Source of the DNA: an uncultured Lentibacter sp. | GTDB taxonomy: Bacteria; Pseudomonadota; Alphaproteobacteria; Rhodobacterales; Rhodobacteraceae | Assembly (NCBI RefSeq): GCF_937123735.1 | Contig: NZ_CAKZKL010000011.1 | Span: 1,833-65,832 of the forward strand | Reading direction: 5' to 3' | DNA length: 64,000 nt | Shown: positions 7,671 through 54,584 of the stretch, piece after piece | How the letters are laid out: each line of letters begins with the position of its first letter | Position numbering within the stretch: the stretch's first letter is position 1 | Notes under the pieces: generated by a model | What the model was told of the DNA's origin: nothing | Database searches by the model: none | Seen by the model: only the letters and a program-made list of their open reading frames with translations | Program-made: the position numbers and the translations under genes

Positions 7671-8261
7671 TTACTGCAACACAAATGAGGTGAAATGGAC
7701 ATGCTCGATACCACCAAAACCTTCGAGCATTTCCAGCCTCGCGTTGATGGCCTCAACCATTTTTTGCGCCAGCAAATCACGCCCGGCCTTGCCTTGAATG
7801 TCCTCTTCGCTGAATTCACTAATTGTGCCCAACACCTCCGAGCGCAACGCGAGCTGATGCGTTTGAACATGCTCGATAACACTGTCATCATATTGAGTAG
7901 ATACGCCGACACCAAGCTGCAAAAACTTCCGTGAATTGCGCAAATTGGTTGTAAAGTTGCCGTCAAATTCGAAGTAAGTCGTCACAAATGTGTCCACATC
8001 AGGGACATCTTTCTTATTCAATTCCGGCTCGGCGTCAGGGTCTTCTACAACCTCCTCCTCTTCAGGAAGCTGCCCACTCTCTTTGAGCTTACGTTCAATG
8101 ATCTGCTCAATTTCATCACTCGGCGACAAGTTAGAACCACCAAACAAAAAGAAACCGGCTCCCAGGCCTACGCCCACGAGCAGCAGCCCTCCTACAACGA
8201 AGCCAATAATCTTGACAAGTCCGCCTTTTTTCTTTGGTTCTTCGGTCTCTTGGTCAGCCAT
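7671..8261 (-). CDS. fliL: flagellar basal-body-associated protein FliL
   Basis: A single TM helix (IIGFVVGGLLLVGVGLGAGFFLF), then a FliL-type periplasmic domain ending in HVHFTSFVLQ. Confidence 0.85.
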   Translation of the reverse strand: MADQETEEPKKKGGLVKIIGFVVGGLLLVGVGLGAGFFLFGGSNLSPSDEIEQIIERKLKESGQLPEEEEVVEDPDAEPELNKKDVPDVDTFVTTYFEFDGNFTTNLRNSRKFLQLGVGVSTQYDDSVIEHVQTHQLALRSEVLGTISEFSEEDIQGKAGRDLLAQKMVEAINARLEMLEGFGGIEHVHFTSFVLQ

Positions 8262-17591: not shown

Positions 17592-17613
17592 TCTATTGGG
17601 GAGAATAATATCA

Positions 17614-18156
17614 ATGCGCGCGCCAATAAAACTTGCAGCTCTATACGGCCTCCCGGCCGCGCTCACAATTGGCGCATTTTCCATCGGCCATTTAAGCATT
17701 AGCCCTGAGACAAGCCCCCTGAACCCGCCGAATGTCGAGGCAATCAACGAAGCAGCCTCTGAGCAAGACGCAGAAGAGCCCTCAGTAGATGACACTGAAT
17801 TGGCAGAAGGCAACATACTTTCAGAGCCAGACTTTCAATACTACCCTTATCCTTCGACCGTTATTGGCAATATTCCTGGTAGCAACAAGTTATTCAGTTT
17901 TGAAATAGCGGTTTCCATATTTGAAACCCCTCTGAGCGCAAGCAACTTAATGTCCGCTCTGGAAGAACGAGAACCTCAGCTACGCCCTGTAATCCTCGAT
18001 CAAACTGTTGATCTAACAGAAGAGGCATTGCTCTCCAAAGAAGGACGGAGCAACCTGGCTGAACTTATAAAGGCTTCAATAAACAACTCACTCATCCGCT
18101 GGGGGTATGAACCGTTCATTCACTCTGTGGAAATAACATCCTTTATCGTCACCTAA
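17614..18156 (+). CDS. FliL-family protein (second paralogue)
   Basis: An N-terminal TM helix and a C-terminal region (KLFSFEIAVSIFE...EGRSNLAELIKASINNSL...VEITSFIVT) that resembles the FliL domain. The ATG has a GGGGAGA RBS. The track ORF starts at an upstream TTG. Confidence 0.6.
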   Translation: MRAPIKLAALYGLPAALTIGAFSIGHLSISPETSPLNPPNVEAINEAASEQDAEEPSVDDTELAEGNILSEPDFQYYPYPSTVIGNIPGSNKLFSFEIAVSIFETPLSASNLMSALEEREPQLRPVILDQTVDLTEEALLSKEGRSNLAELIKASINNSLIRWGYEPFIHSVEITSFIVT

Positions 18157-21001: not shown

Positions 21002-21073
21002 TGTGGAATAAATTGATTATTAGAAATATATTCCGAAAGGAGTTACCCTTTTGATAAAATAAAGCTGATCGTG

Positions 21074-22792
21074 ATGAATATCGACCAAACAACAACAAAG
21101 CTTAAAAATAGCTACATTGTATCGACCTACGCGTCCTCGGCGTTTGGAGCTGTGATCGGGGTTATTGTTTCTATTGCCGCCGCTCTTTTTGTCCATATCG
21201 TTCGCTATTTTAGCGATCAAAACCATTTCTCGGACATAAAAGCCCTTAGCTACGGACCGATCACGCTAAACTTAACCACAGTCTTTTTGATTGCTTGTGC
21301 TGCCGTCGCAATTTTGGTTTTGCGGCGGTTGTTTAATGTCAACCGCTGGCATGGTCCGGCCGATACGATATACGCCGCACATCAAGATCTGGAACCCATC
21401 GATCTCAAAATGGGACTCGCCTCAACCTTGGCTGCACTTGTATCCGCTTGCGGGTCCGCTTCGGTTGGGCAATATGGTCCGCTCGTTCATTTTGGGGCTA
21501 CCCTCGGCCTTGCGCTCAAACAAACATTATTCGTGCCAATGCGCTCCAATGTTGTGATTGGATGTGGTGTCGCTGCTGCAATTTCAGCCGGCTTTGACGC
21601 GCCGATTGCGGGGATCATCTTTGCTCATGAAGCAATCCTGAGGCATTTTTCAGCGCGCGCGATGGCGCCCATAGCAACAAGCGCGATAGTTGCGGCTGCG
21701 ATGGTCAATTATGTTTTCCAACTCCCCAATCCCTTGTCATTGCGCAGCGAGGCCCCGCCCCTCCTTGAGGCTCTCTTGCCAGTCATTTTGTCAGCTGTGA
21801 TATTCGGGTTTGTCGCGATACTGTTCATGCAGAGCTTGCGGTTTTTCATGTCCCTGAACAAACGGCTCGCGTTGCCGGCTTACAAGTCGCTCTTTATTGC
21901 CTCGCTTTGCGTTGTTCTCGTCGGGGCCTACATTCCCGAGACGCTTGGGCTCGGCACCCAGACACTGGGCGAGCTACTAAACGTTCCTCCAACGTTGGGA
22001 TTTGCTTTGGCGCTCTTTGCGGGCAAGATATTCCTCACCAGCATTTGCCTTGGGTTTGGCTTCTTTGGTGGAGTCTTTTCACCTGCACTCTTTGTCGGTG
22101 CATCAGCAGGAGCAGTGCTCGGAAGCGCTTTTGTTTCTACTTCCCAAGGAGACCTAAGCACAGCATTAACCCTTGCAGGAATGGCCTCGGTTGCGGCCTG
22201 CGTGGTTGGCGCGCCTTTGGCGACAGTCTTTATTGTCCTTGAGTTGACCCTCTCATACGAGTTTACTTTGATTACACTCTTGGCTGTTGTGGTCAGCCAA
22301 GTGGTTTCTTCCAATATTTTTGGCCATTCGTTTTTTGACCGTCAACTGATTGACCGCGGAATAGATCTGCGCCAGGGCCGCAGCCAATTGTTGCTCACGC
22401 AAACAAAAATTGGCGCCTATGCAACATCAGATTTTGTCACAAGCCGATCAGAGCAATCTGTCAAACAGCTCCTCGACGCTCTCAGACGAAAAAACCATAC
22501 TGAGGCATATTTTGTTTCAGATAGCGGTTTGTTTGTAGGCAAGCTCACAATCAATCAATTGTTGACAGCACCGCCAGATGCGGCTGTTGATGATCTGGTT
22601 GACCATGCCCCTCTGTTGTTGGAGGCAAATACATCCTTGCAACAGAGCATCGAAAAAGCCTCGTCATTTGTTGGCGAAAGCATCCCCGTGGTTTCATCTG
22701 AAACTGGTCATTTATTGGGTGTCGTCACCGAAGCCGATCTATTTTCCGCTTACCTTGAAATCCAAGAAACCATCAGAGATGTAGAGCGCTGA
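21074..22792 (+). CDS. ClC-family chloride channel/transporter with a C-terminal CBS pair
   Basis: A polytopic protein with ClC motifs (GSASVGQYGP, GFFGGVFSPALFVGA). The C-terminal ~150 aa is CBS-like. The start could be the GTG at 21071 or the ATG at 21074. Confidence 0.85.
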   Translation: MNIDQTTTKLKNSYIVSTYASSAFGAVIGVIVSIAAALFVHIVRYFSDQNHFSDIKALSYGPITLNLTTVFLIACAAVAILVLRRLFNVNRWHGPADTIYAAHQDLEPIDLKMGLASTLAALVSACGSASVGQYGPLVHFGATLGLALKQTLFVPMRSNVVIGCGVAAAISAGFDAPIAGIIFAHEAILRHFSARAMAPIATSAIVAAAMVNYVFQLPNPLSLRSEAPPLLEALLPVILSAVIFGFVAILFMQSLRFFMSLNKRLALPAYKSLFIASLCVVLVGAYIPETLGLGTQTLGELLNVPPTLGFALALFAGKIFLTSICLGFGFFGGVFSPALFVGASAGAVLGSAFVSTSQGDLSTALTLAGMASVAACVVGAPLATVFIVLELTLSYEFTLITLLAVVVSQVVSSNIFGHSFFDRQLIDRGIDLRQGRSQLLLTQTKIGAYATSDFVTSRSEQSVKQLLDALRRKNHTEAYFVSDSGLFVGKLTINQLLTAPPDAAVDDLVDHAPLLLEANTSLQQSIEKASSFVGESIPVVSSETGHLLGVVTEADLFSAYLEIQETIRDVER

Positions 22793-24136: not shown

Positions 24137-27100
24137 TCAAATTGCGTTCATCAAGGTATCAAGAAGCTCTTTTGCCGTGCTCAAGACACGCGCGAGAGCC
24201 TGGTAGGCTTGTTGCTGCTCCAACAGCCGTGCGGCTTCGGTGTCCAGGTTCACACCTGAGAATTCTGACTCCATCTCAGCAGCAGCATCTCGCACAGCCA
24301 AGGACGATGCCGCCGCAATTGTGCTGGCCTGCACCTTCGCGCCTGCATCAGTGATCAAGACACTAAAACTTTGCGAAAACCCGCCTTTGCCACTCTGTAA
24401 ATCAGTTGTTTGCAAACCAAGCAGTTTGGCCACATTGCGGCCGTCTCCTTCGCCGGCAGTATTGGGTGCAATACTAAAGCGATCGCCCGTTTTCACCGCA
24501 CCGCTTATCACCAAGTCTACACCAGCCACGGAGAAGCGACCCGTTTCATCCAGATACCGGCTTGCGATGGAGTGCCCGCTTTCCCGGTCCAAAATTTCAA
24601 TACGTCCAGACGCACCATCTTCAACAACGATATCAAGTGGCCGCTGCAACCCAACTTCAATATCAGACGTATCTCTCTCAAATTGAGCCGAAAGCCTGCG
24701 CGCCCCATCCCCGGTCAGAATAACAATCAGCTCTTCAGGCGGCAGGTTTTTCAAAGAAATACGTTCAGAAATCAAACCACCAGACGTCGCCTGCACATCA
24801 ATCGCACTTTGGTCTAGCGCGCTTAAACGCAAGCCATCTTGATTGACCAAGATTTGATTTGGAGAGGTCACAAAGCCAAGCGCCCGGCCTCCTTCACTCG
24901 GAAGGATACGCAAGGCCCCAGCTGTTCCAGCCTCCGTGCGGCGAATGGTGATCTGAACTTCAGTGTCGGAAACGGAGTTCACAGACAGTGTTGTGCCCAA
25001 AGGCAAATCTGGGTTTTGTGCGATCTGAACAACGTCATTCTCGTCAAGAGTCAGCGAGATATCGTATTGTGTGTCATCAATCTCAAGCGACAGAACGTGA
25101 GGCTGGCTGCTCAACGTGTTTTGCAAAAACGAACGGCCCGTCAGAACTTCTAATTGCTGGTCCACTTCAAGGCCAAATGCGGTCATGGAAGCGGTGCTCG
25201 CATCGGACGAAACTCTCAAGGTCTGCCCGGTTTCAAAGCCTTGCGACGCACTGACAACAAGCTTGAAACTGTCGTCAAAACCAGCCGTTAACCGCTCCGC
25301 TTCAGGGCCCTCAACAACAACTTCGCCATCCACCATGCGCAGAACAAAACTTTGCTCTCCTAACTCTAAAGTTATGGTTTCGCCATCGCTGGGCAAACCA
25401 TCAACATCAGAAAAACTGCGCCCGCTCAACACTGGCACAGGCGCCAAAGACCGCAGATCAGTTGCAAGCGCCTGAGCAATCGCCTGGGAGCTCAACTCAT
25501 CCAGATCCGAGCTGAGAACCGAGGCAGATAAGCGCGCGCTTGATCCGTCCGTTTCAAGTGAAACCGAAAACGATGCCGCCGCGGCGCTTGCAAAGCTCCC
25601 ATCGGGGCGGGCTTCGTTCCCGTCGATCCCTTCGATTGCCCTAAAGCTCAACTGCTGCCAACTGCCCGCAGGATCAGCTGCGCGGCTGATGAAGCCCTGA
25701 TGAAGCGGATCGGCGGTGCTCGTTTTGGTGCCTCCAGCGCCACTCACCGTAAAGCTGCGCGCGGCAGACAGGCTCACCTCGCCACCAAAGCGCGCAAATT
25801 GATTTGCAGCTGTTCCAAGAAGGACGGGGCTATCGCTTCGCAGCTGGCCTTGCGCCCCAACAGCAAAAGCCTCAAAGCCCTCCCCCTCGACCACGATATC
25901 ACTCAACAAAATATCGGAACCTGCTTCGTTGACCAATACCAGCTGGCCCAAATCAGAGGACAGATGCGCGGATATACCCGTGTTGCTGGTTTGTGCGTTT
26001 ATCAGCTCAACCATGTCACTGAGATCGCCGGCGCGGGCGTAACCTTGGATGGCCACTGGGTCTTTGTTTTCCCCTGTTAGGCCAAAACTGACAATTCCCT
26101 CCGGTATCGCTTGCAACAAGACTCGTGTTTCGGCTTTTGCCCTGATCCCCAAATCTGAACTCAGCGTGTTGACTTGCTCTGCGATATAATCGGCCATAAC
26201 CCCTTGAGGGATCTCAAGTTTGGTCTCTGGATCACTTCCAACGGCAATCGAAAGCGTTTGCGCCGGAGTAGCGACGCTTACCGGAAGAGAACTTCCAGCC
26301 CATACAGGAGGTGCAAACCCTTCCCCCGAAACTTTGAGACCATAGGCCCCACCCGGCGTTGCACGCGAAACCTCTGTTGATTGGAAACCCCCACTGCCCA
26401 CCCCGTTCAAATGTTCAGCCCGATATTCAACCGTCTCTAGAAATCCATTCGCAGGGGTCAGATATCGCATCACCTCGCTGTCGCTGAGCGGCGTTCCGGC
26501 GATTTGACGCCCTTCACGGGTAAACACTTGAATTTGCGAACCGATGTCATTTTTTTGCGAAATGCTGCCTGTAACGGTTTCATCGGCTTGCAAGACGGCC
26601 GCGCTCAGTCCGGCAATTCCACTTGCAATCGACAGAACGCCCGCTTCACCACTTGCAAACAAGCCGAGATCCGCAAAGCTGGCCCCACTTGATGATTGCA
26701 AAATTCCAGCATTGAGCATGTCGGCCAACTCCGACAAGTTGACGTTGCTCTCAGTGCTGCGGCGCTCCGCAAAAGCCGCAGTATCAAACTGGTGGCTCAC
26801 CTCATCAAGCGTCAGGGTTATACTGCTCAAGTTGGCAAATTGGGCGTCGGCCAAAGTAAACGACGCGAGATCTTGCCGCGTGAGCGAGAACAGATCCACC
26901 TCAGATACATCCGCCGGGATAACACCAATAACACCGTCCGAGCGGAACCGTGTTGCCGCCGCAATACCAATGTCGTTGGCGAGCAGCTGCGTGAGCATTG
27001 GAAGGTCGCTCGGCGCCTGTGCTGAAAATGCCTCAAACGCCAAATTCGCAGAGCCTGTGTTGCTGACATCGGAGGTTGTAAGAAGTGGGCCGGCCGCTGC

Positions 27101-28387
27101 GAACTCTTGCGGACGGGTCAACAAGAACTGCATATTTGCAGCCTTTCCACGCGACAATTCCAGCGCGAACGTGTCACCATCAGCCGGCTGTCCCACCAAC
27201 GACACATTTAGACCCGCAAAAACAAATCCGTTTTGCCCCTGTGCGACCACATCACCTGCCTCATCGCGGCCTTGCCACATTGAGTTGGCAGAATTGTAAA
27301 CGATTTCTAGCTCCACATCTTCTTCTGGCAAGGGCCCTACAGACGAGACATAGCCGGTTACCGACCCGAGGTTTGTCGCAGAGGGTTCAAGCATAAAGCT
27401 ATCCAAACCGAACAGCGCCCCTCCCGTTTTTCCGTCAAGGCTGACACCTTCCGAATGCACAGAGTTCAGCTCGCTGGCCACTTTGCGTGCAAGAGCATCC
27501 AATTCTCGGGAAGTTTGCGAGACCGTCTCATATGCTGCGATCAAACCCGCTAATCCACCAGAGGTCATTTGCTGGGTCTGCAAGGCGCCCCCCCCGGCAC
27601 CGATATACACATCGATCTGGCTGTCTTGCGCGATAACCGAGATTTGGCTGGCAGTTTTTCCCTCCAAGAGCACGGGGCCACTCCCAGTTGCTCCGAGTGT
27701 CAAAGTTGTATCACCGCGCACGTTGTATCGGGCCGAAACGCCTGCGTAGTCGGCAATCGCAGCAATAGACTTGTCACGTTGATCCATCAGGGCGTTGGAG
27801 GCCTTGCCACTCCCTCCGGCAGAAATAAGGCGCGCTTGGATATCCGCCAAACCAGCCAACTCGGTGTTTAAAGAGCCCACCATGTTGTCAACTTCGCTGG
27901 TGATTGCCGATTGAAAAGTTTGCAATGAACCAGAGAGCGACTGAAACGCTGATGCCAAAGAACGCCCCTGCTCCAGCGCGACAACGCGCCCAGAGAGATC
28001 ACCTGGCGCTTGGGCGATACTGCTGATGCCGTTGAAGAACTCGTTTATTGAAAATGTCAGATCATAGTCTTCTGGCAGCAGGATGCTCTCAAGTGTCGTA
28101 AGCGCTTCTTTATACGACTCTGCTCTTTCGTAATCAGATGAGGTGTCTCGCGCGCGTGAGGCGATAAAGCTGTCAAAGGCTCGCGACACATCCGACACAC
28201 GCACACCAAGACCAGCTTGGTCCGATATACTCAGTATTCCGCCTTGTGTTGCTGAAACCTCTTCCATGGAAGCTTCTCGGCGGCGATACCCTTCAGTGTT
28301 GAGATTGGCAATATTTTGGCCCGTGACACTAAGGGCTTTTCGATAGGCCTGAATCCCGCTGCTACCGATGTCAAACAAGCCAGCCAT
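24137..28387 (-). CDS. flgK: hook-filament junction protein FlgK (HAP1), giant 1416-aa form
   Basis: The N-terminus (GLFDIGSSGIQAYRKALSVTGQNIANLNTEGYRRR) and C-terminus (VNLDTEAARLLEQQQAYQALARVLSTAKELLDTLMN) are canonical FlgK. About 1000 aa of extra central sequence lies between them. Confidence 0.9.
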   Translation of the reverse strand: MAGLFDIGSSGIQAYRKALSVTGQNIANLNTEGYRRREASMEEVSATQGGILSISDQAGLGVRVSDVSRAFDSFIASRARDTSSDYERAESYKEALTTLESILLPEDYDLTFSINEFFNGISSIAQAPGDLSGRVVALEQGRSLASAFQSLSGSLQTFQSAITSEVDNMVGSLNTELAGLADIQARLISAGGSGKASNALMDQRDKSIAAIADYAGVSARYNVRGDTTLTLGATGSGPVLLEGKTASQISVIAQDSQIDVYIGAGGGALQTQQMTSGGLAGLIAAYETVSQTSRELDALARKVASELNSVHSEGVSLDGKTGGALFGLDSFMLEPSATNLGSVTGYVSSVGPLPEEDVELEIVYNSANSMWQGRDEAGDVVAQGQNGFVFAGLNVSLVGQPADGDTFALELSRGKAANMQFLLTRPQEFAAAGPLLTTSDVSNTGSANLAFEAFSAQAPSDLPMLTQLLANDIGIAAATRFRSDGVIGVIPADVSEVDLFSLTRQDLASFTLADAQFANLSSITLTLDEVSHQFDTAAFAERRSTESNVNLSELADMLNAGILQSSSGASFADLGLFASGEAGVLSIASGIAGLSAAVLQADETVTGSISQKNDIGSQIQVFTREGRQIAGTPLSDSEVMRYLTPANGFLETVEYRAEHLNGVGSGGFQSTEVSRATPGGAYGLKVSGEGFAPPVWAGSSLPVSVATPAQTLSIAVGSDPETKLEIPQGVMADYIAEQVNTLSSDLGIRAKAETRVLLQAIPEGIVSFGLTGENKDPVAIQGYARAGDLSDMVELINAQTSNTGISAHLSSDLGQLVLVNEAGSDILLSDIVVEGEGFEAFAVGAQGQLRSDSPVLLGTAANQFARFGGEVSLSAARSFTVSGAGGTKTSTADPLHQGFISRAADPAGSWQQLSFRAIEGIDGNEARPDGSFASAAAASFSVSLETDGSSARLSASVLSSDLDELSSQAIAQALATDLRSLAPVPVLSGRSFSDVDGLPSDGETITLELGEQSFVLRMVDGEVVVEGPEAERLTAGFDDSFKLVVSASQGFETGQTLRVSSDASTASMTAFGLEVDQQLEVLTGRSFLQNTLSSQPHVLSLEIDDTQYDISLTLDENDVVQIAQNPDLPLGTTLSVNSVSDTEVQITIRRTEAGTAGALRILPSEGGRALGFVTSPNQILVNQDGLRLSALDQSAIDVQATSGGLISERISLKNLPPEELIVILTGDGARRLSAQFERDTSDIEVGLQRPLDIVVEDGASGRIEILDRESGHSIASRYLDETGRFSVAGVDLVISGAVKTGDRFSIAPNTAGEGDGRNVAKLLGLQTTDLQSGKGGFSQSFSVLITDAGAKVQASTIAAASSLAVRDAAAEMESEFSGVNLDTEAARLLEQQQAYQALARVLSTAKELLDTLMNAI

Positions 28388-32220: not shown

Positions 32221-35200
32221 TTACATACGGATATTGATGATGGTCTGGGTGAGGCTCGTGGTTGTTTCAATCGCTTTTGCAGAGGCCTGATAATTTCGCT
32301 GTGCCGTGATCAAGTTAACCAGTTCCTCCGTGATATCGACGTTTGAGCGCTCGAGTGAACCCGACAGAATATTCCCGAAGCCCTCTGCGCCAGCCTCACC
32401 AACCTGAGGTGTGCCTGAAACCGCAGTTTCAACGTAGGTCGCGTTTCCAATTTGTTTCAAACCGTTTTGGTTGTTGAAGTTCGCCACAACAATCTTGCCA
32501 AGAGGATTGTTTTGCCCATTTGTATAATTTGCACGGATGGTGCCGGAACTGTCAATTTCAAGGCCATCCAAGCGCCCAGAAGTGAAACCATCCTGCTCGA
32601 CCGACAGCACCGAAAATGGCTGCGCAAACTGTGTTGACGCCGCGTAGTCAATATCAAGTGAAATCGAAAAGCCTTCTGCTTGTTGCTCATAGCGAACATT
32701 GTTTTTGGGGCTGATGAGCTTACCTGTTTTGTCAAAGGTCAGCTCGCCTTCATCAATGTAGAGCGGGAAATAGCCATCCACCATATCTTCTGGAGGGGTG
32801 GTAACAACTGTGCCCTCAGGGTCGACATAGAGCGCGACGCCTTCAGCGTTTGTTGCCTGCACCAGATTGAATATTTTCGGGACCGAACCAACACCCAGCG
32901 GAACATCATCCAAACCCAGGCGAGAGGCGCCTTTGACTTTGATTGTCGATCCGTCGCCCGTTGTCCCCGTCTGGAAGACAAAGCCATTGTCGGCCGTCGA
33001 ATAGCGCACCGTCACGCCACCAACAGTTTGCCCTGTTACTGGGTCTGAAATCTGGTTGATTCTTTCCTCGAGTGCGGTGGCCAAAGTGGTGCCAACATAG
33101 TTGCCCGGCGGCACATCAATGATACCAGCAATGCCATTTACAGAAACATTGAAGCGGTTTTCGCCGTTGTTGGATGTCAGGCGGAACACTTCAGTCAAGT
33201 CGCCCTGGGCTGCGCGGCCAGTCGCAATTGCAGGTTCAGCCGCAAGACCGCTGCCTTCTTGGAAGGTAAAGTCCTGCTTGGACGCACCAAAGCCAAACAG
33301 TGCGTTTTCACCCCCGCCAATAATCCGGGAATCCAGCGCGATCGTCTCACTTTGGTCAGCACTCCCATCCCCGCTGGCCGGAATAATTCTGCGACCAATC
33401 TGGATATTGGAAGATTTCTGATTTGTGCTGACGCCAAGCGCCCCGTTGGCATCAATGCTTTCGCCTGTCGTGCCACTCGCAACAGTAAACGATTTCGTAT
33501 CGCCATTGTAACTGACGGACACACCATACCGTTTGTCGTTCAGCTGGATTTCTTCACCGTCTGCAATAAACGGCTCGGTAGACAAGATCTCTCCCCCGCG
33601 AATGAGAACTGTCTCAGCATTGCCCCCCGCAGGGATACCAAGCCCGTTTGTCCCATCGGCATCCGCAGATCCGTAAACAGTGAAGGCGTTAAAGTTACTG
33701 CCTGTGCCCGTTCCCAAAACCGTGCGATCAACATTGAACTGCAAGCGCTGATTGGTTTCATCATAGGATACTTTGATGGGAGGATTGTTTTCATCAACCC
33801 AGGCCACTTTGCTGGTTGTTGCGTTTGTGACGGTCTGAGCGCTCACACTCCCCAAATCAGTGTTCACATTGGCCGCCGTGATAACAATCTGATCGCTGCC
33901 ATTTTTGGAGAACACAACACCTGCGGCCGAGGTTGCTGTCAGCGCATTCAACCCGGTTACCACCGCGTCAATATCTGCAAAGTTGGCATCTTGAAAATCG
34001 GCGGTGACAGTTTTGTCTCCAATCGTGAAGCGCGTGAACTTGTTGTTCAATTCGGCAAAGCCGAGGGCTGAAAAGCTATGCACTTCGGCAACGGCTGTGT
34101 CCGCGGCTGTTGTTTCAGTCGCTGCAATTGCGGCCCCTGAAACAGGCAGGCCAAGCGCAGTCAAGGAAGCGCCGCTTGTGTCGATCATCGTCTGACCGAA
34201 GGCGATTGCCTCTTCCACGGAAAGCTCACCCGAGTTGCGTTGCGCTGCTGTGCCAATTTCGCGCATCACAATTCGCTTGGAATTGAACGTTTCAAAGGCA
34301 CCATCAACAGTTGCTTTGGCCCCTTCAAAGAAGGCCTCCAGATCTTGTGAGGGCTCATAAAGAAGCGACACATCGGTGCCATCCAGTTCAAAGCCAGATT
34401 CTGGCAAGTTCAGGCCCGAGGTGTCGATCCGCAACATTCGGTAGCCTGCATCCATGGCTACATTTTCAAAGATACGCAGCTCGCGCCCATTCAGGTGATC
34501 TTGAAAATCTGTGTTCGTAGAGGCGCCCACCAGACGGATAGAGGAGGATGTGGGTGCTCCAAATTCAGTTGGAACATAGACTGTCAAGGTGTTTTGCGTG
34601 TTGTCGTATACAACCGACTTACCACCAGAGCTTACGAGTGCACCCTCAGCATCAACCGATTTCAGCTCAGTGTTCTTATCATAAACAGAAAGACTGGGGC
34701 GCTTGCCATAGTATGAGTAGGCTAGGAAACGCTCTTGCGAAACCGTGCCGCTGTCGGTGTCTTGGGTGTGCGTAATGGTGACCACTTCAGGCTCAGGATG
34801 TGGTTCAGCCATCTCGCTGCCAATACTACGCACAAACAGCCGCCCTTCAACGCCGAGCGTTGCAGCCCCGGTGCCAAGAGTGCCATCGCTGTCATAGATA
34901 TAGTCGTTCATTTCATCTACGAGGCGGGTTTGCGTATGCGCCAAAAACTCTTCGCGCGTGAAATCCGGTGATGCGCCCTCAACGTCCATGCCCATCAGAT
35001 CTGAAACAGATGTGGGCTGAAGAAGGTCTATCTCGATTTTCTTGTCACCCAGACCTTGCAAAGAGCCGTCGGGCGCCAATTTGAAGAGATCAATCGTCAA
35101 CCGATCGTCGATATTCTGGAAAATTTGAATTTTCTTGTCATCACCATAGGCTTCGTTGATGGCCCGTTCCACTTCCGCTGCCAGCTGTTCAGCGTTGTAT

Positions 35201-36297
35201 TTTCCCGGGCGCAGATCAATGGAGACCGGTGCATCGCTGTCATCCACGTTCACGGTAAGAAAATCTTTACCCCAGAACAAATCACTGTCGGCATTGCCGG
35301 CTTCTCGAGTGGCCTTGAACAGCAGCGGATCCGTGACAATCTCTACGAGCTTGTCGCCTTCCTCGCCAAAATCAAATGCGCTTTGCTCGCCTTGAAGGGT
35401 GGCAGGTTGTGACTCGACCTGCTGGTTGAGGTCATCCAGCTTGTAAAGCGGAGAGCCCTTTCCTTCGAGGAAGTAGTTGTCATCTGGAACAGAGGTCGTT
35501 TGGTTCCCGAAACGGTCAATGAATATTTGCTTACCCGTATCATCCACCGCATTCACCAAGTCGGGTTCAATGATGGTATCATTGATGACCAGCCGGGTAT
35601 CATATTTGTTGGTTGGGTCTTCCGCAGAAGCATTTTGTGTCTTGATAAAATAGATTGTCGCGATCGTCGGGTTACCAAGGTCATCGAAGATCGTAATTGA
35701 CGTGGAGTTGGTGTAACTGTCCGCATCATTCGGATCAAACCTGTAACCATCGGCAAACTGATCCAGATCGGTGACAACCGGCGCATCCGCCGGCACGTTC
35801 ACACCAAGGTCAATTTTACCTGTCGCCTTGGGTTCTCCGGATGTCACCGGAAGCTGCAAAGGCACCGCGCTGTCTAGATCTTTCGCCGTGACAGACCCAT
35901 CTAGGTTGACAGGGTAGGTCATCAGATACTGACCGGCACTATCAACAACGTATCGGTCATTATCGACGTTAAATGACCCGTTCCTGGTGTAAACTGTCTG
36001 AGTAGACGTGAGCGACGGCTTCAACGCAAAGAAACCTTGCCCCGAAATGGCCAAATCAAGAGCATTCAGAGACGAGGCAATGTTGCCTTGGGTGAACTGC
36101 TGCTTGATCCCCTTCAAGATGGTGCCGGAACCGATTGAGGACGATGCGTTTTGCAACGGGGACGTCGCAAAGATATCACCAAATTCCGCGCGGCTTCTCT
36201 TAAAACCGGTCGTGCCGACGTTGGCAATATTGTTTGATGTGGCTGAAATATCGGCCTGCGCACCATTAAGGCCGGTCAATGCGGTATAAAATGACAT
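32221..36297 (-). CDS. flgE: flagellar hook protein FlgE, giant 1358-aa form
   Basis: The N-terminus (MSFYTALTGLNGAQADISATSNNIANVGTTGFKRSR) and C-terminus (LERSNVDITEELVNLITAQRNYQASAKAIETT) are canonical FlgE. It sits between flgD and flgF. A very large central insertion is present. Confidence 0.88.
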   Translation of the reverse strand: MSFYTALTGLNGAQADISATSNNIANVGTTGFKRSRAEFGDIFATSPLQNASSSIGSGTILKGIKQQFTQGNIASSLNALDLAISGQGFFALKPSLTSTQTVYTRNGSFNVDNDRYVVDSAGQYLMTYPVNLDGSVTAKDLDSAVPLQLPVTSGEPKATGKIDLGVNVPADAPVVTDLDQFADGYRFDPNDADSYTNSTSITIFDDLGNPTIATIYFIKTQNASAEDPTNKYDTRLVINDTIIEPDLVNAVDDTGKQIFIDRFGNQTTSVPDDNYFLEGKGSPLYKLDDLNQQVESQPATLQGEQSAFDFGEEGDKLVEIVTDPLLFKATREAGNADSDLFWGKDFLTVNVDDSDAPVSIDLRPGKYNAEQLAAEVERAINEAYGDDKKIQIFQNIDDRLTIDLFKLAPDGSLQGLGDKKIEIDLLQPTSVSDLMGMDVEGASPDFTREEFLAHTQTRLVDEMNDYIYDSDGTLGTGAATLGVEGRLFVRSIGSEMAEPHPEPEVVTITHTQDTDSGTVSQERFLAYSYYGKRPSLSVYDKNTELKSVDAEGALVSSGGKSVVYDNTQNTLTVYVPTEFGAPTSSSIRLVGASTNTDFQDHLNGRELRIFENVAMDAGYRMLRIDTSGLNLPESGFELDGTDVSLLYEPSQDLEAFFEGAKATVDGAFETFNSKRIVMREIGTAAQRNSGELSVEEAIAFGQTMIDTSGASLTALGLPVSGAAIAATETTAADTAVAEVHSFSALGFAELNNKFTRFTIGDKTVTADFQDANFADIDAVVTGLNALTATSAAGVVFSKNGSDQIVITAANVNTDLGSVSAQTVTNATTSKVAWVDENNPPIKVSYDETNQRLQFNVDRTVLGTGTGSNFNAFTVYGSADADGTNGLGIPAGGNAETVLIRGGEILSTEPFIADGEEIQLNDKRYGVSVSYNGDTKSFTVASGTTGESIDANGALGVSTNQKSSNIQIGRRIIPASGDGSADQSETIALDSRIIGGGENALFGFGASKQDFTFQEGSGLAAEPAIATGRAAQGDLTEVFRLTSNNGENRFNVSVNGIAGIIDVPPGNYVGTTLATALEERINQISDPVTGQTVGGVTVRYSTADNGFVFQTGTTGDGSTIKVKGASRLGLDDVPLGVGSVPKIFNLVQATNAEGVALYVDPEGTVVTTPPEDMVDGYFPLYIDEGELTFDKTGKLISPKNNVRYEQQAEGFSISLDIDYAASTQFAQPFSVLSVEQDGFTSGRLDGLEIDSSGTIRANYTNGQNNPLGKIVVANFNNQNGLKQIGNATYVETAVSGTPQVGEAGAEGFGNILSGSLERSNVDITEELVNLITAQRNYQASAKAIETTTSLTQTIINIRM

Positions 36298-47096: not shown

Positions 47097-47378
47097 ATGC
47101 AACTAAGAGAAGCGCTTGCCCGTTTAGAGACATTGCTTGCCCTCGCAAGGGACAAAGAAGAGACTTCGACGCGACCAGAGGAAGTGGCTGAAGAGATGAG
47201 TACTTTGATCGCTGAGTTTATCGCTCCAGCGCTCAAAACGGGTGGCGCATTGCCACTTCCAGAAACGACCAAACAAGAAATACAAAAACTTTTGCTCGAA
47301 ATCTCCAAATTGGAACAAAATTTGCTCCTAAAGTCCAAAGCGATTTCCGAGTTCAAGCCAGCCCGCCCTGGCCAGTGA
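47097..47378 (+). CDS. small helical protein, possible FlgN-type chaperone
   Basis: A 93-aa helical, acidic protein directly after flgM, the usual flgN position. Sequence similarity was not verifiable by eye. Confidence 0.35.
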   Translation: MQLREALARLETLLALARDKEETSTRPEEVAEEMSTLIAEFIAPALKTGGALPLPETTKQEIQKLLLEISKLEQNLLLKSKAISEFKPARPGQ

Positions 47379-47416: not shown

Positions 47417-47839
47417 ATGCAACTTACTAATCTCGAAATTTCGCCGGAACTTATACTTGCGTCAGCGGGTATTTTGGCTGCTCTGCTGGTTGTATGCGCG
47501 GGCCTTTGGCTCACGCAGCGCGCAACCAAACGCTGCATTAGACTGTTGCAAGATCAACAAAACCGCGCCCAAAAAATCAACTCTGAACAGCTTCAGAAAA
47601 TTCGACACGATCTTGATGGCCTCGCAATACTTGTCGAGAGCCTTGGCAAGACCACCAAGAGGATGCCGCCGAAAGGCGCTTCACTGGCTGCTGAAAAAGT
47701 CGAGATAGCCATTTCCTTGGCTGCGGCCGGCGAGAGCGCAGAAAACATCTCACGCGCCACCGGGCTCTCAGACCTTGATGTCAACACTATCATCCGCTTT
47801 CACAAAAATAAGCCAGGCGGAGAGCCCGCCCTCATCTAG
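47417..47839 (+). CDS. DUF2802-like protein (N-terminal TM, coiled coil, C-terminal HTH-like segment)
   Basis: A TM helix (LILASAGILAALLVVCAGLWL), then a coiled coil, then AISLAAAGESAENISRATGLSDLDVNTIIRFH. This architecture is typical of DUF2802 proteins found in polar flagellar loci. Confidence 0.5.
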   Translation: MQLTNLEISPELILASAGILAALLVVCAGLWLTQRATKRCIRLLQDQQNRAQKINSEQLQKIRHDLDGLAILVESLGKTTKRMPPKGASLAAEKVEIAISLAAAGESAENISRATGLSDLDVNTIIRFHKNKPGGEPALI

Positions 47840-47863: not shown

Positions 47864-48517
47864 TTAGTTCTGCGGGTCCATAGCGTTCCTCTGACCAAAT
47901 GGGGACCCCAAGAATATCTCTTGGGCCTTGGCTTGGGCCGCAATCAAGGCAGCAGGCTCCATATTGTCAACCATCGCCGCACTGCCCTGCGCGCCCCCCC
48001 GTATGGCCAAAGCCTGCGCAATAGAATACCAAATATAGGCTGTTTCGAAATCAGGCTCTTCCAGAAACTCCGCGTGTATACGCGCATATTTCAAAATGGC
48101 TGATCTATTACCGTCTGCAAGCTGATCACTTAACCGTTTGATAATACGTTGATGCACTTCAGAACGCTTCTCAACAGGTAAAAACGCTGCAAGCTCTGTT
48201 ACCATTTTGACAGCCCGGTGCTCGCGCCCAAGGTCAGATAAGACAGCCCAATAATAAGCACCAATGTAGTTTTTGGGTTGCCCTAGTCCTGTTTTCAAAA
48301 GCAACGCTAAATTAAACTGCGCATCTGGCGCATCTGTTTCGGCCAAAGCCGTAAACCCCGAGATAGCCACAGCATAATCGCCAGCGTGAACAGCCTCCAC
48401 GGCCAAATCAAACCGCTCATCCGCGCTCAACTCTGCTTGCTGTGACAAAACAGGCGCGCCAAGAAGCGTCACGCTCAGTCCAAGCCCTATCGCATATGCC
48501 CAAAAAATCCTGCTCAT
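47864..48517 (-). CDS. secreted Sel1-repeat protein (MotX-like size and architecture)
   Basis: Signal peptide (AIGLGLSVTLLGAPVLSQQ). Sel1-like repeats are present (DAQFNLALLLKTGLGQPKNYIGAYYWAVLS; ...FETAYIWYSIAQ). It is 217 aa long. Confidence 0.6.
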   Translation of the reverse strand: MSRIFWAYAIGLGLSVTLLGAPVLSQQAELSADERFDLAVEAVHAGDYAVAISGFTALAETDAPDAQFNLALLLKTGLGQPKNYIGAYYWAVLSDLGREHRAVKMVTELAAFLPVEKRSEVHQRIIKRLSDQLADGNRSAILKYARIHAEFLEEPDFETAYIWYSIAQALAIRGGAQGSAAMVDNMEPAALIAAQAKAQEIFLGSPFGQRNAMDPQN

Positions 48518-48903
48518 TTTCCCGCCAACATAACGAGTTGAAGATAGAGCACCCGCGATTTGAACTTGGATCCATCCTGTTGTTCATAAACAACAATTTT
48601 TGGTCGATCTGCGACCGATTTTGAAACCTCAATAAACATCGTCGCCGGCAGATGAACTCCGGCCTCAGCCAGTGCCGCCAAGGGCTCCATACTGAACTGA
48701 CGCTCAAAATCAGGATCAAGCCACGCCTTTGCCAAAGCCCGCCCCAGGATATCGGGAAGCTTGTTGCGCACCTCTTCTCGGTTGTGCAGCGTGACATCCT
48801 TGCCGGCCAAGAGAGTGGCTTCTCCACGCGAAGCATTCTGCGGAACAAGTCCGGTTGAAGAAGTCGGGAGCGTCACCAGAGCGGTAGACTTGTTCGTTGT
48901 CAT
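48514..48903 (-). CDS. protein with a nitrile-hydratase-alpha/NHLP-leader-like domain, ~129 aa
   Basis: LGRALAKAWLDPDFERQFSMEPLAALAEAGVHLPATMFIEVSKSVADRPKIVVYE follows the AKAW-D--F...P...L-E-G+-LP pattern of NHLP/nitrile hydratase alpha N-terminal regions. There is an ATGA overlap with the Sel1 gene. The start is uncertain because no RBS is visible. Confidence 0.4.
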   Translation of the reverse strand: MTTNKSTALVTLPTSSTGLVPQNASRGEATLLAGKDVTLHNREEVRNKLPDILGRALAKAWLDPDFERQFSMEPLAALAEAGVHLPATMFIEVSKSVADRPKIVVYEQQDGSKFKSRVLYLQLVMLAGK

Positions 48904-49042
48904 TATGAGATCGCAGCCATGGCAATATAAACAGAGGCAAGTGTAGTATAAACGACACTCAATTAAACGCAATTAGCATATTAGGTGTCAAAATACGGAC
49001 TATTTATTAATCTGACACTAATCTTCGCACACAAATCAAATA

Positions 49043-53972: not shown

Positions 53973-54104
53973 ACCTTGGCAAAAAGGGCTGGCCGCTTGA
54001 GCATCTGATGAAAACAAATTTACTGCCTTCCAAACTCAAGAATTTGAGTTCTTGGTCCAAATCTTGCAAACTGGATGACAGGAAAAACCCGCGCGGAGAA
54101 AACA

Positions 54105-54584
54105 ATGGTGCGCTTTGCCTTCGTTATCATAGCCCTCATCGCCTGTCAGCCCGCCTCGGCCCAATACTACACGCGGGGTCATATTATTGACGACCTGCTT
54201 CAGGGGGTCAGCTGGTTGCGTTGCAGTGTCGGCCAAAGGTGGGAGGCAGAGAACGCCCGCTGCATCGGAGAAGCTGTCCGGCTCAACTACGATGAAATCG
54301 AACAGGCCATAGAACAAGCCAACGCACAGCTTGGCGGAACCTGGCGCCTGCCAACAGAAGAAGAGCTGAGCCAGCTTGTCTGCAAGACCTGCCCACCGCC
54401 CATGATTGATGCCGACCTTTTCCCGGACACCGCAGCTGAACCTTACTGGACTTCCGACAAGAACTGGATTGCGCCACGCAACCGTTGGAGCGTGAATTTC
54501 ATGACAGGCGAGAGCTATGGGCGTTTCTTCCCCGAACAACGGCTGGCTGTCCGGCTGGTCTCTGAGCGCGCGCCCCGGCCCTGA
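54105..54584 (+). CDS. secreted DUF1566 (Lcl C-terminal domain) protein
   Basis: Signal peptide MVRFAFVIIALIACQPASA. It carries WRLPTEEELSQLV and YWTSD motifs typical of DUF1566. RBS GGAGA. Confidence 0.6.
   Translation: MVRFAFVIIALIACQPASAQYYTRGHIIDDLLQGVSWLRCSVGQRWEAENARCIGEAVRLNYDEIEQAIEQANAQLGGTWRLPTEEELSQLVCKTCPPPMIDADLFPDTAAEPYWTSDKNWIAPRNRWSVNFMTGESYGRFFPEQRLAVRLVSERAPRP

Follow-up and report, generated by a model that had tools for sequence, protein, structure and literature searches.

A Coupled NHLP-Fold and Sel1-Repeat Gene Pair as a Candidate Accessory Module of Fla1-Type Flagella in Marine Alphaproteobacteria

We describe a pair of adjoining genes in the flagellar locus of an uncultured Lentibacter sp. 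(Rhodobacteraceae), located in a 64,000-nucleotide stretch of contig NZ_CAKZKL010000011.1 (assembly GCF_937123735.1), hereafter the window. The upstream gene encodes a 129-aa protein with an NHLP-like fold, and the downstream gene encodes a secreted 217-aa Sel1-like repeat (SLR) protein. The pair is real, widespread, and unannotated, and we infer, from context only, that it functions as a lineage-specific periplasmic motor accessory with an unexpected partner fold. In our judgment, the chances are about even that the two genes make up an accessory module with a periplasmic scaffold for the gamma-proteobacterial type of flagellum known as Fla1 or fla3; any particular partner of the pair in the motor merits much less confidence.

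Searches for work linking NHLP with flagella, or Sel1/TPR proteins with Fla1/fla3, returned no description of the pair in the searchable literature, in agreement with the initial annotation, which had taken the pairing to be undescribed. Its homologues are unnamed or 'hypothetical': every named homologue of the small protein is a 'hypothetical protein', and named homologues of the Sel1 partner are entered as 'TPR repeat protein' or 'SEL1-like repeat protein'.

The Gene Pair and Its Coupling

Both genes lie on the minus strand. The 129-aa gene (48514-48903, ATG at 48903) is an open reading frame (ORF) with neither a signal peptide nor a cysteine, and the 217-aa gene (47864-48517) is defined by its ORF, its homologues, and its AlphaFold2 (AF2) model. 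They overlap by 4 nt in an ATGA (48514-48517, minus strand) that joins the TGA stop of the 129-aa gene to the ATG start of the 217-aa gene. An AT-rich intergenic region of 139 bp (48904-49042, no strand) separates the 129-aa gene from the divergent gene of a FleQ-like activator. The opposite, plus strand over 47864-48903 carries only short ORFs of 41-68 aa.

On six metagenome contigs that carry the identical protein, independent gene calling recovers both the 129-aa gene and the 217-aa gene, and the identical 217-aa protein occurs on at least 22 metagenome contigs, each with the same 129-aa gene directly before it. Measured against the four closest relatives, the proportion of nonsynonymous differences (pN) is 0.18-0.24 for the 129-aa gene and 0.27-0.38 for the Sel1 gene, next to a saturated synonymous proportion (pS) of 0.76-0.87. 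Both genes are under purifying selection, and the pair is co-transcribed and translationally coupled.

Family scans of the window ORFs place the pair inside a large flagellar cluster. One flank holds flhA, flhF, a MinD/FlhG-like gene, and fliA, and then plus-strand genes for FlgP (LPP20-like), FlgT (FlgT_N), FlgA, and FlgM with two small ORFs. The other flank holds the FleQ-like sigma-54 activator, which bears a helix-turn-helix (HTH), followed by fliD, a long motB (407 aa), and a PomA-like motA. Farther out are a second, HTH-less activator (FleT-like) upstream of fliE-J, FliS, and an FlgJ consisting of the rod-binding part only. The organization of the cluster is that of the Fla1 system of Cereibacter sphaeroides, named fla3 in Rhodobacterales surveys. 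Besides MotB, no MotY-like (MotY_N/OmpA) gene was found among the window ORFs scanned, and the scans thus reproduce the setting given by the initial annotation, with PomAB-like stators, FlgP, and FlgT and no MotY-like gene.

Distribution and Synteny

A scan of a genome collection with the small protein found relatives in 299 species-level genomes, and we analyzed the best 80 of these 299 loci. They come from Nereida, Planktomarina, Seohaeicola, Roseicyclus, Gemmobacter, Pseudorhodobacter, Plastorhodobacter, and HIMB11, together with many SAR116/Puniceispirillales and metagenome-assembled genomes (MAGs) labelled 'Rhodobiaceae'. A Sel1 homologue follows directly downstream on the same strand in 79 of the 80, and the contig ends in the remaining one. 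All of these 79 pairs have a spacing from -4 to +8 nt (-4 in 30 loci and -1 in 23), which, together with the overlap at 48514-48517, upholds the earlier proposal of coupling through an ATGA. The pairing is real and far beyond chance: both genes are held by purifying selection, and synteny is kept in 79 of 80 related loci.

The flagellar setting is just as constant. In tblastn searches with the flagellar proteins of the window, the pair is flanked by flagellar genes wherever the contig is long enough, with either FlhA/FlhF/FliA or PomA/MotB/FliD/FlgM/FlgA/FlgT as the flanking set in Rhodobacterales, SAR116/Puniceispirillales, and the 'Rhodobiaceae' MAGs. Two arrangements stand out. The Rhodobacterales order runs pomA-motB-fliD, activator, pair, flgM-flgA-flgT, flhA; the SAR116-type order runs flgT, flhA-flhF-fliA, a short ORF, a divergent FlgF-like gene, and the pair, with an SLT-domain gene some genes further on. 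The pair of a more distant member (P0171) lies between FliS and FlgM-FlgA-FlgT-FlgP, and a locus that at first seemed to lack flagellar genes (L019) has FlgC/FlgD 3 kb away. Across taxa, the pair consistently sits inside fla3/Fla1-type clusters, with FlgT, FlhA, FlhF, FliA, PomA, MotB, and others around it in 79 of the 80 loci, a strongly positive co-occurrence that confirms the assignment of the pair to the flagellar locus.

Protein searches reached 384 relatives of the small protein, and 1410 when members farther away supplied the profile; a complete scan of the cluster representatives with the small-protein family gave 381 clusters at 50% identity. Named matches in the protein searches end at relatives such as Paragemmobacter, Plastorhodobacter, and 'Rhodobacter sp. 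CACIA14H1'. The set contains about 60 non-redundant pairs, a number too small for the analysis of inter-protein covariation. A tblastn search of plasmids with the small protein gave no match.

The 129-aa NHLP-Fold Protein

Three segments can be told apart in the small protein. Codons 6-13 (STALVTLP; 48865-48888, minus strand) hold a short motif, [ST]xAL[VI]P, that is conserved in alignments within an otherwise variable N-terminal tail. Codons 51-104 (48592-48753, minus strand), preceded by an N-terminal extension of 50 residues, correspond in profile searches to an NHLP/nitrile-hydratase-alpha N-terminal-like domain with the pattern LPDILGRALAxxWxDxxF...DRPxIxV. Codons 117-129 (RVLYLQLVMLAGK; 48517-48555, minus strand) form a C-terminal strand that is nearly invariant in alignments and ends in AG[K/R]-COOH.

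Residues 51-104 score 22.3 bits against Pfam NHase_alpha (cut-off 27.2) and 27.3 bits against the TIGR03793 NHLP leader model (cut-off 50.9), and several further models of the NHLP clan match the same residues, likewise under their curated thresholds. NHase_alpha is matched by 6 of 18 family members (best 4e-7), and the family profile finds the nitrile hydratase alpha chain 1v29_A at E 1.4e-5 and the NHLP leader 8tb1_A at E 1.3e-4 in the PDB. The AlphaFold model (predicted local distance difference test, pLDDT, of 73) folds into three helices (42-80), after which come a beta-hairpin (89-108) and a third strand (115-122); residues 1-28, the variable Ser/Thr/Pro-rich tail, are predicted to be disordered (pLDDT <50). 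NHLP leaders studied by nuclear magnetic resonance consist of a three-helix bundle, a two-strand hairpin, and a flexible recognition tail (PMC12537861), and the order of secondary structure predicted for the 129-aa protein is the NHLP-leader order. A Foldseek search of the PDB with this model gave no significant match (best E 0.4), and it is on profiles and the order of secondary structure, not on superposition, that the assignment of the fold is based. With scores under the family thresholds, the resemblance to NHLP and nitrile hydratase alpha is supported only as remote homology, and it is in this form, as sub-cut-off profile matches joined to a matching fold order, that the kinship suggested by the initial annotation holds.

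The protein ends in ...LVMLAGK, with one invariant K/R after AG and zero cysteines, and the invariant AG[K/R] end is shared by distant and phage relatives. To judge from its sequence, it looks like an NHLP leader that stops where the core should start. It is also far more conserved than its Sel1 partner in alignments, as is expected of a protein that touches conserved machinery. We rejected an identity as nitrile hydratase: only the non-catalytic N-terminal part is present, no beta-subunit gene was found nearby, and the lack of cysteine means that the metal-binding Cys cluster of the enzyme cannot exist.

The small-protein family search also reached multi-NHLP precursors at E ~1e-10 to 1e-13, with M(M/V)AV(A/S)GG before the core. 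Three metagenome proteins of 230-325 aa (P0277, P0295, and P0302) contain up to four matched NHLP-like stretches, and two of them (P0277 and P0302) end in ...MMAVAGG or ...MVAVSGG followed by a basic W/R-rich peptide. These proteins look like genuine multi-leader precursors of peptides that are made by the ribosome and modified after translation (RiPPs).

The 217-aa Sel1-Repeat Protein

The larger protein starts with a Sec-type signal peptide at codons ~1-26 (48440-48517, minus strand), assigned by inspection, with an inferred cleavage site between VLS and QQ. This hydrophobic segment, MSRIFWAYAIGLGLSVTLLGAPVLS followed by QQ, has a positive N-terminus and small residues before the predicted cut. 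By inspection, all 78 of 78 Sel1 orthologues have a positive N-terminus and a hydrophobic stretch, with small residues next in most and no lipobox.

A sole canonical Sel1 repeat occupies codons 64-90 (DAQFNLALLLKTGLGQPKNY...; 48248-48328, minus strand; Pfam PF08238). It scores 25 bits against PF08238 (cut-off 30.7), and several homologues carry a precomputed match to the same family. Most of the family-invariant residues (A66, Q67, G77, G79, and W90) fall within this repeat. The AF2 model (pLDDT 89.9) is an all-helical solenoid with eleven helices past the signal helix, and its Foldseek matches are led by LpnE, c5321, and other SLR proteins at probability 1.0, with low template modeling (TM) scores of 0.3-0.4; the periplasmic domain of SflA is also among them. 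On these grounds, we place the protein in the SLR superfamily. We also considered MotF, which is a bitopic membrane protein with a transmembrane segment at residues 54-74 (PMC7277832), and rejected this identity for the Sel1 protein on account of that topology.

Relatives in Phages

A distant, stand-alone branch of the small-protein family is present in large marine phage contigs of IMG/VR (L094-L096 and L097-L124, up to 202 kb), represented by P0231, P0234, P0269, P0270, P0275, and P0281. Its members carry the motifs DYLGxVLARCW ... RPRLVxYE ... KRICYLQLxMMAG[KR], and so have the same C-terminal ending as the flagellar protein, and their N-terminus holds an LPALV-type motif that resembles the flagellar [ST]xAL[VI]P. 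The neighbouring genes include a PstS-like gene, a metallophosphoesterase, QueC-like genes, and tail-fibre-like repeats, a setting that suggests cyanomyovirus-like phages. No Sel1 gene was found near the phage-branch copies. In BFVD, two 'uncultured Caudovirales' proteins (A0A6J5QI59 and A0A6J5SC77) match at E 4e-7 with a TM of ~0.6.

A viral copy of the flagellar type was seen as well. The 25-kb contig IMGVR_UViG_3300017739_002723 encodes, at L125:5947-6294, a 115-aa protein (LPDILGRALARSWIDP) that is 42% identical, is shortened at the N-terminus and differs at the C-terminus (...LSLTMVATR), and is without a Sel1 partner. This copy may be host-derived.

Promoter Region

Sequence scans found no convincing sigma-54 or sigma-28 promoter in the 139-bp intergenic region of the window, and sigma-28 motifs upstream of the pair show no enrichment over shuffles across the 80 loci. 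Among close relatives, the regions upstream of the pair do not align. Strict and tolerant scans of these regions in the 80 loci gave only 4 strong sigma-54 matches on the correct strand. In a few SAR116-type loci (L066, L080, L084, and L086), near-perfect sites (TGGCAT-N5-TTGCA, TGGCAA-N5-TTGCA) lie 45-90 nt before the small gene, which hints at FleQ/sigma-54 expression of the early or middle class in those few loci; most loci have no such site. Between the pair and the FleQ-like gene of the window, we noted an inverted repeat, GTGTCA-N22-TGACAC, at 48985-49018, whose 6-bp arms could be due to chance.

Other Features of the Window

Several further features of the flagellar cluster deserve mention. 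The window encodes a giant hook protein, FlgE, of 1358 aa (32221-36297, minus strand) and a giant hook-associated FlgK of 1416 aa (24137-28387, minus strand), both assigned by Pfam. C. sphaeroides is known to have a large FlgK, and a hook protein of 1358-aa length is unusual. There are two FliL-domain genes, one at 7671-8261 (minus strand) and a second, of 186 aa, at 17596-18156 (plus strand), which stands apart from fliM and beside fliS and might be the counterpart of C. sphaeroides MotF.

An Lcl_C (DUF1566) domain gene (54075-54584, plus strand) lies directly upstream of pomA on the strand opposite to it, and occupies the same position in L001-L005; tblastn matches of the opposite-strand ORF of the window suggest that the gene is kept beside pomA in many Rhodobacterales loci. 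The minus-strand 206-aa 'orf206' upstream of pomA is probably no gene, the real gene being the Lcl_C-domain gene on the other strand. A gene for a CLC chloride channel that includes a CBS domain (21071-22792, plus strand) is inserted between an extra FlgF-like gene and flgL, and a CBS-domain gene (L126:24338-24979) is also found among the flagellar genes of a plasmid of Octadecabacter.

The two small ORFs after flgM, of 93 aa (47097-47378, plus strand) and of 140 aa with an N-terminal hydrophobic segment (47417-47839, plus strand), have no family match. In L089 and on the Octadecabacter plasmid, hypothetical genes of similar size stand at this position. The 93-aa ORF may encode an FlgN-like chaperone.

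Possible Roles of the Pair

According to published reviews, the Fla1 motor works without MotX and MotY and has FlgT, FlgP, MotF, and FliL as its known extra parts (PMC7277832, PMC10954123); a 2024 paper by the group that works on this motor lists only FlgT, MotF, and FlgP as such (PMC10954123). There is therefore room for an unrecognized component on the stator side. A scaffold at the stators or rings is the most economical role for the solenoid, because the Fla1 motor, which is stated to lack MotX/MotY, needs FlgT, FlgP, MotF, and FliL to surround a MotB whose periplasmic linker is long. We propose that the Sec-exported solenoid may serve as a periplasmic scaffold for protein-protein contacts in the motor's outer part. 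It would be placed near FlgT and FlgP (H-ring and disk) and the long periplasmic part of MotB, where it could help to recruit, position, or stabilize stator units or ring components, and would thus do a MotX-like job without specific kinship to MotX. The small protein has no catalytic residues; we suggest that it may be a 'leader without a core', reused as a docking adaptor made in a fixed ratio with the solenoid. It might bind the solenoid after export, for which no obvious route exists other than the flagellar type III system, or else bind a conserved cytoplasmic flagellar partner. C. sphaeroides offers a precedent for mixed export routes in FlgJ, which uses the flagellar type III system, and SltF, which uses Sec.

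Several observations weigh against an accessory module of this kind. The small protein has no signal peptide, and a periplasmic complex with the solenoid therefore needs an unproven export route. The stand-alone phage copies without Sel1 imply a function of the fold that is independent of flagella and of the solenoid, and probably cytoplasmic. The promoter class of the pair cannot be assigned from the sigma-54 and sigma-28 scans. Finally, plasmid pOA238_118 of Octadecabacter arcticus 238 (118 kb), which we found via FlhA, carries a fla3-type cluster broken by insertion sequence (IS) elements; here, in the RefSeq annotation, a 'SEL1-like repeat protein' (WP_245581578.1; L126:15444-16037) stands beside two hypothetical genes, flgM, flgA, an FlgT_N protein, and an LPP20 lipoprotein. 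Upstream of this Sel1 gene, a flagellin gene takes the place of the small gene, and the 300-bp gap before the Sel1 gene holds no remnant of the small partner gene. The absence may reflect decay, and the plasmid shows that the solenoid gene can persist without its small partner.

The foremost rival holds that the pair is an assembly or regulatory factor, in which the solenoid is a periplasmic chaperone or checkpoint (compare FlgA for the P-ring and MotE for MotC) and the small protein acts in the cytoplasm to modulate FleQ/FleT, FliA, or the export gate. We regard it as possible, though unlikely. Gene order fits it, in that the pair diverges from the adjoining FleQ-like activator in the window and its close relatives and lies ~1.4 kb downstream of fliA, with two other genes between, in the SAR116-type arrangement; so does a small protein that is extremely conserved and without an export signal, with phage relatives that argue for cytoplasmic activity. 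Periplasmic SLR regulators exist, and one family member has a weak match to ExoR. Nothing specific speaks against this reading, but the profile scans found no DNA-binding or known regulator domain, and a cytoplasmic regulator tightly coupled to a secreted protein would be unusual.

A bolder form of the accessory module would have the NHLP protein exported by the flagellar type III system and captured by the solenoid, both building a ring or stator-docking structure not seen before, which would stand in for the MotX/MotY T-ring in the gamma-type motors of abundant marine Alphaproteobacteria (roseobacters, SAR116), with the phage copies interfering with a host target. We hold this full version to be rather improbable.

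Slightly less probable still is that the Sel1 protein is a true, diverged MotX that forms a T-ring, with the NHLP-like protein in the place of MotY. The initial annotation had likened the protein to MotX, and the outward likeness stands: the two proteins agree in size (217 vs 211 aa), in secretion, and in Sel1-like repeats, and the locus has a PomA-like stator, FlgT, and FlgP. The MotX model also matches 12 of the 26 family members scanned, albeit weakly, the best E value (2.4e-6) being weak for an equivalog. Specific relatedness does not stand, as AlgK and MerG match more members (18 and 14), and with the NCBIfam MotX equivalog NF047621, whose cut-off is 330 bits, the protein scores 14.6 bits at E 0.017 through one repeat. 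An orthologue-only profile finds unrelated SLR proteins at 1e-23 to 1e-11 and MotX chains (8z5n_C, 9yec_Ea, and others) at 2e-3 to 5e-3 over a single repeat, and Foldseek ranks MotX 8z5n_C 36th, at a TM of 0.28. Profiles, Foldseek, and the equivalog model thus give no support for orthology with MotX. Because MotX matches no better than unrelated SLR proteins, 'MotX-like' is a class label only, for a secreted ~210-aa Sel1-repeat protein in a flagellar locus. The small partner, for its part, has neither an OmpA nor a MotY_N domain and no signal peptide.

It is more doubtful again that the pair is a passenger, an unrelated SLR protein and small protein carried along with a transferred flagellar cluster. 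Non-flagellar genes (the CLC channel and the Lcl_C protein) do reside in the same cluster, and fla3-type clusters have spread by horizontal operon transfer (PMC12363192), but the pair is kept coupled at differing cluster positions, in two distinct arrangements and at least two orders, and purifying selection acts on both genes.

Close to refuted, and the least probable of all, is a genuine NHLP-type RiPP precursor or scaffold peptide, matured and exported by enzymes encoded elsewhere and in its flagellar site by accident: the remote homology that it shows with NHLP leaders and with the N-terminal region of nitrile hydratase alpha, and a C-terminal ...MxAG that resembles the ...AVAGG cleavage region of real multi-NHLP precursors, are outweighed by a single K/R after AG, the lack of Cys and of a Ser/Thr-rich variable core, a C-terminus that is invariant rather than hypervariable, the 50-residue N-terminal extension, strict flagellar synteny across orders, and the finding, as the initial annotation had said, of no maturation enzymes nearby (no cyclodehydratase, LanM, radical-SAM enzyme, or peptidase-ABC exporter among the window ORFs scanned, which are flagellar or housekeeping; the 80 related loci were not screened for maturases).

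Significance

The Fla1/fla3-type motor is that of the studied C. sphaeroides flagellum and powers swimming in many abundant marine bacteria. Its stators are recruited and activated without MotX and MotY in a way that FlgT, MotF, and FliL only partly explain, and a strictly conserved, unannotated pair in the cluster is a concrete and easily testable candidate for a missing part. If our interpretation is right, the NHLP fold, known only from natural-product leaders and nitrile hydratase, has been put to new use as a stand-alone protein, both in flagellar systems and, separately, in large phages of marine origin. A periplasmic ring of NHLP protein and solenoid, if real, would be the first structural, non-RiPP use of the fold. 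Naming the family would also improve many genome annotations.

Comparison with Known Systems

Nitrile hydratase alpha (PF02979; 1v29_A) shares with the small protein the helical N-terminal part, in which profile positions 42-92 of 184 align with residues 54-104. The 129-aa protein differs in missing the catalytic half and in having no Cys, and no beta-subunit gene was found with it.

NHLP leaders (TIGR03793; proteusins and NHLP lanthipeptides; PDB 8tb1) are remotely similar to the small protein over ~55 residues, with the same fold order and a small-residue pair, AG, at the tail, and they use their C-terminal tail for recognition (PMC12537861). The 129-aa protein departs from them in having no core peptide, no Gly-Gly, no maturase or exporter among the scanned window ORFs, a 50-residue extension, an invariant C-terminus, scores under the curated cut-offs, and a context that is flagellar and, separately, phage.

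MotX of the Vibrio/Shewanella T-ring (8z5n_C, 9yec_Ea; NF047621) is, like the 217-aa protein, a secreted protein of ~210 aa with Sel1-like repeats, encoded with a polar flagellar system that has FlgT/FlgP and PomA-like stators. Here, by contrast, kinship in sequence or structure goes no further than the repeat class, the scanned window ORFs include no MotY gene, and the gene lies inside the flagellar cluster of Alphaproteobacteria, coupled to an NHLP-fold gene.

PflA/PflB of Campylobacter, MotK of C. sphaeroides Fla2, and SflA of Vibrio (6if6) are likewise periplasmic helical repeats that scaffold stators or control flagellar placement. These proteins are far larger or membrane-anchored, have other repeat counts, and come without a coupled small partner, unlike the pair, and the likeness is one at the level of fold class.

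A parallel is also given by the accessories of C. sphaeroides Fla1, namely FlgT, FlgP, MotF, and FliL (PMC7277832), together with FlgJ-SltF. None of these is an SLR or NHLP-fold protein, and the pair is not mentioned in PMC7277832 or PMC10954123; like the pair, they are lineage-restricted periplasmic or membrane additions that belong to the same type of cluster.

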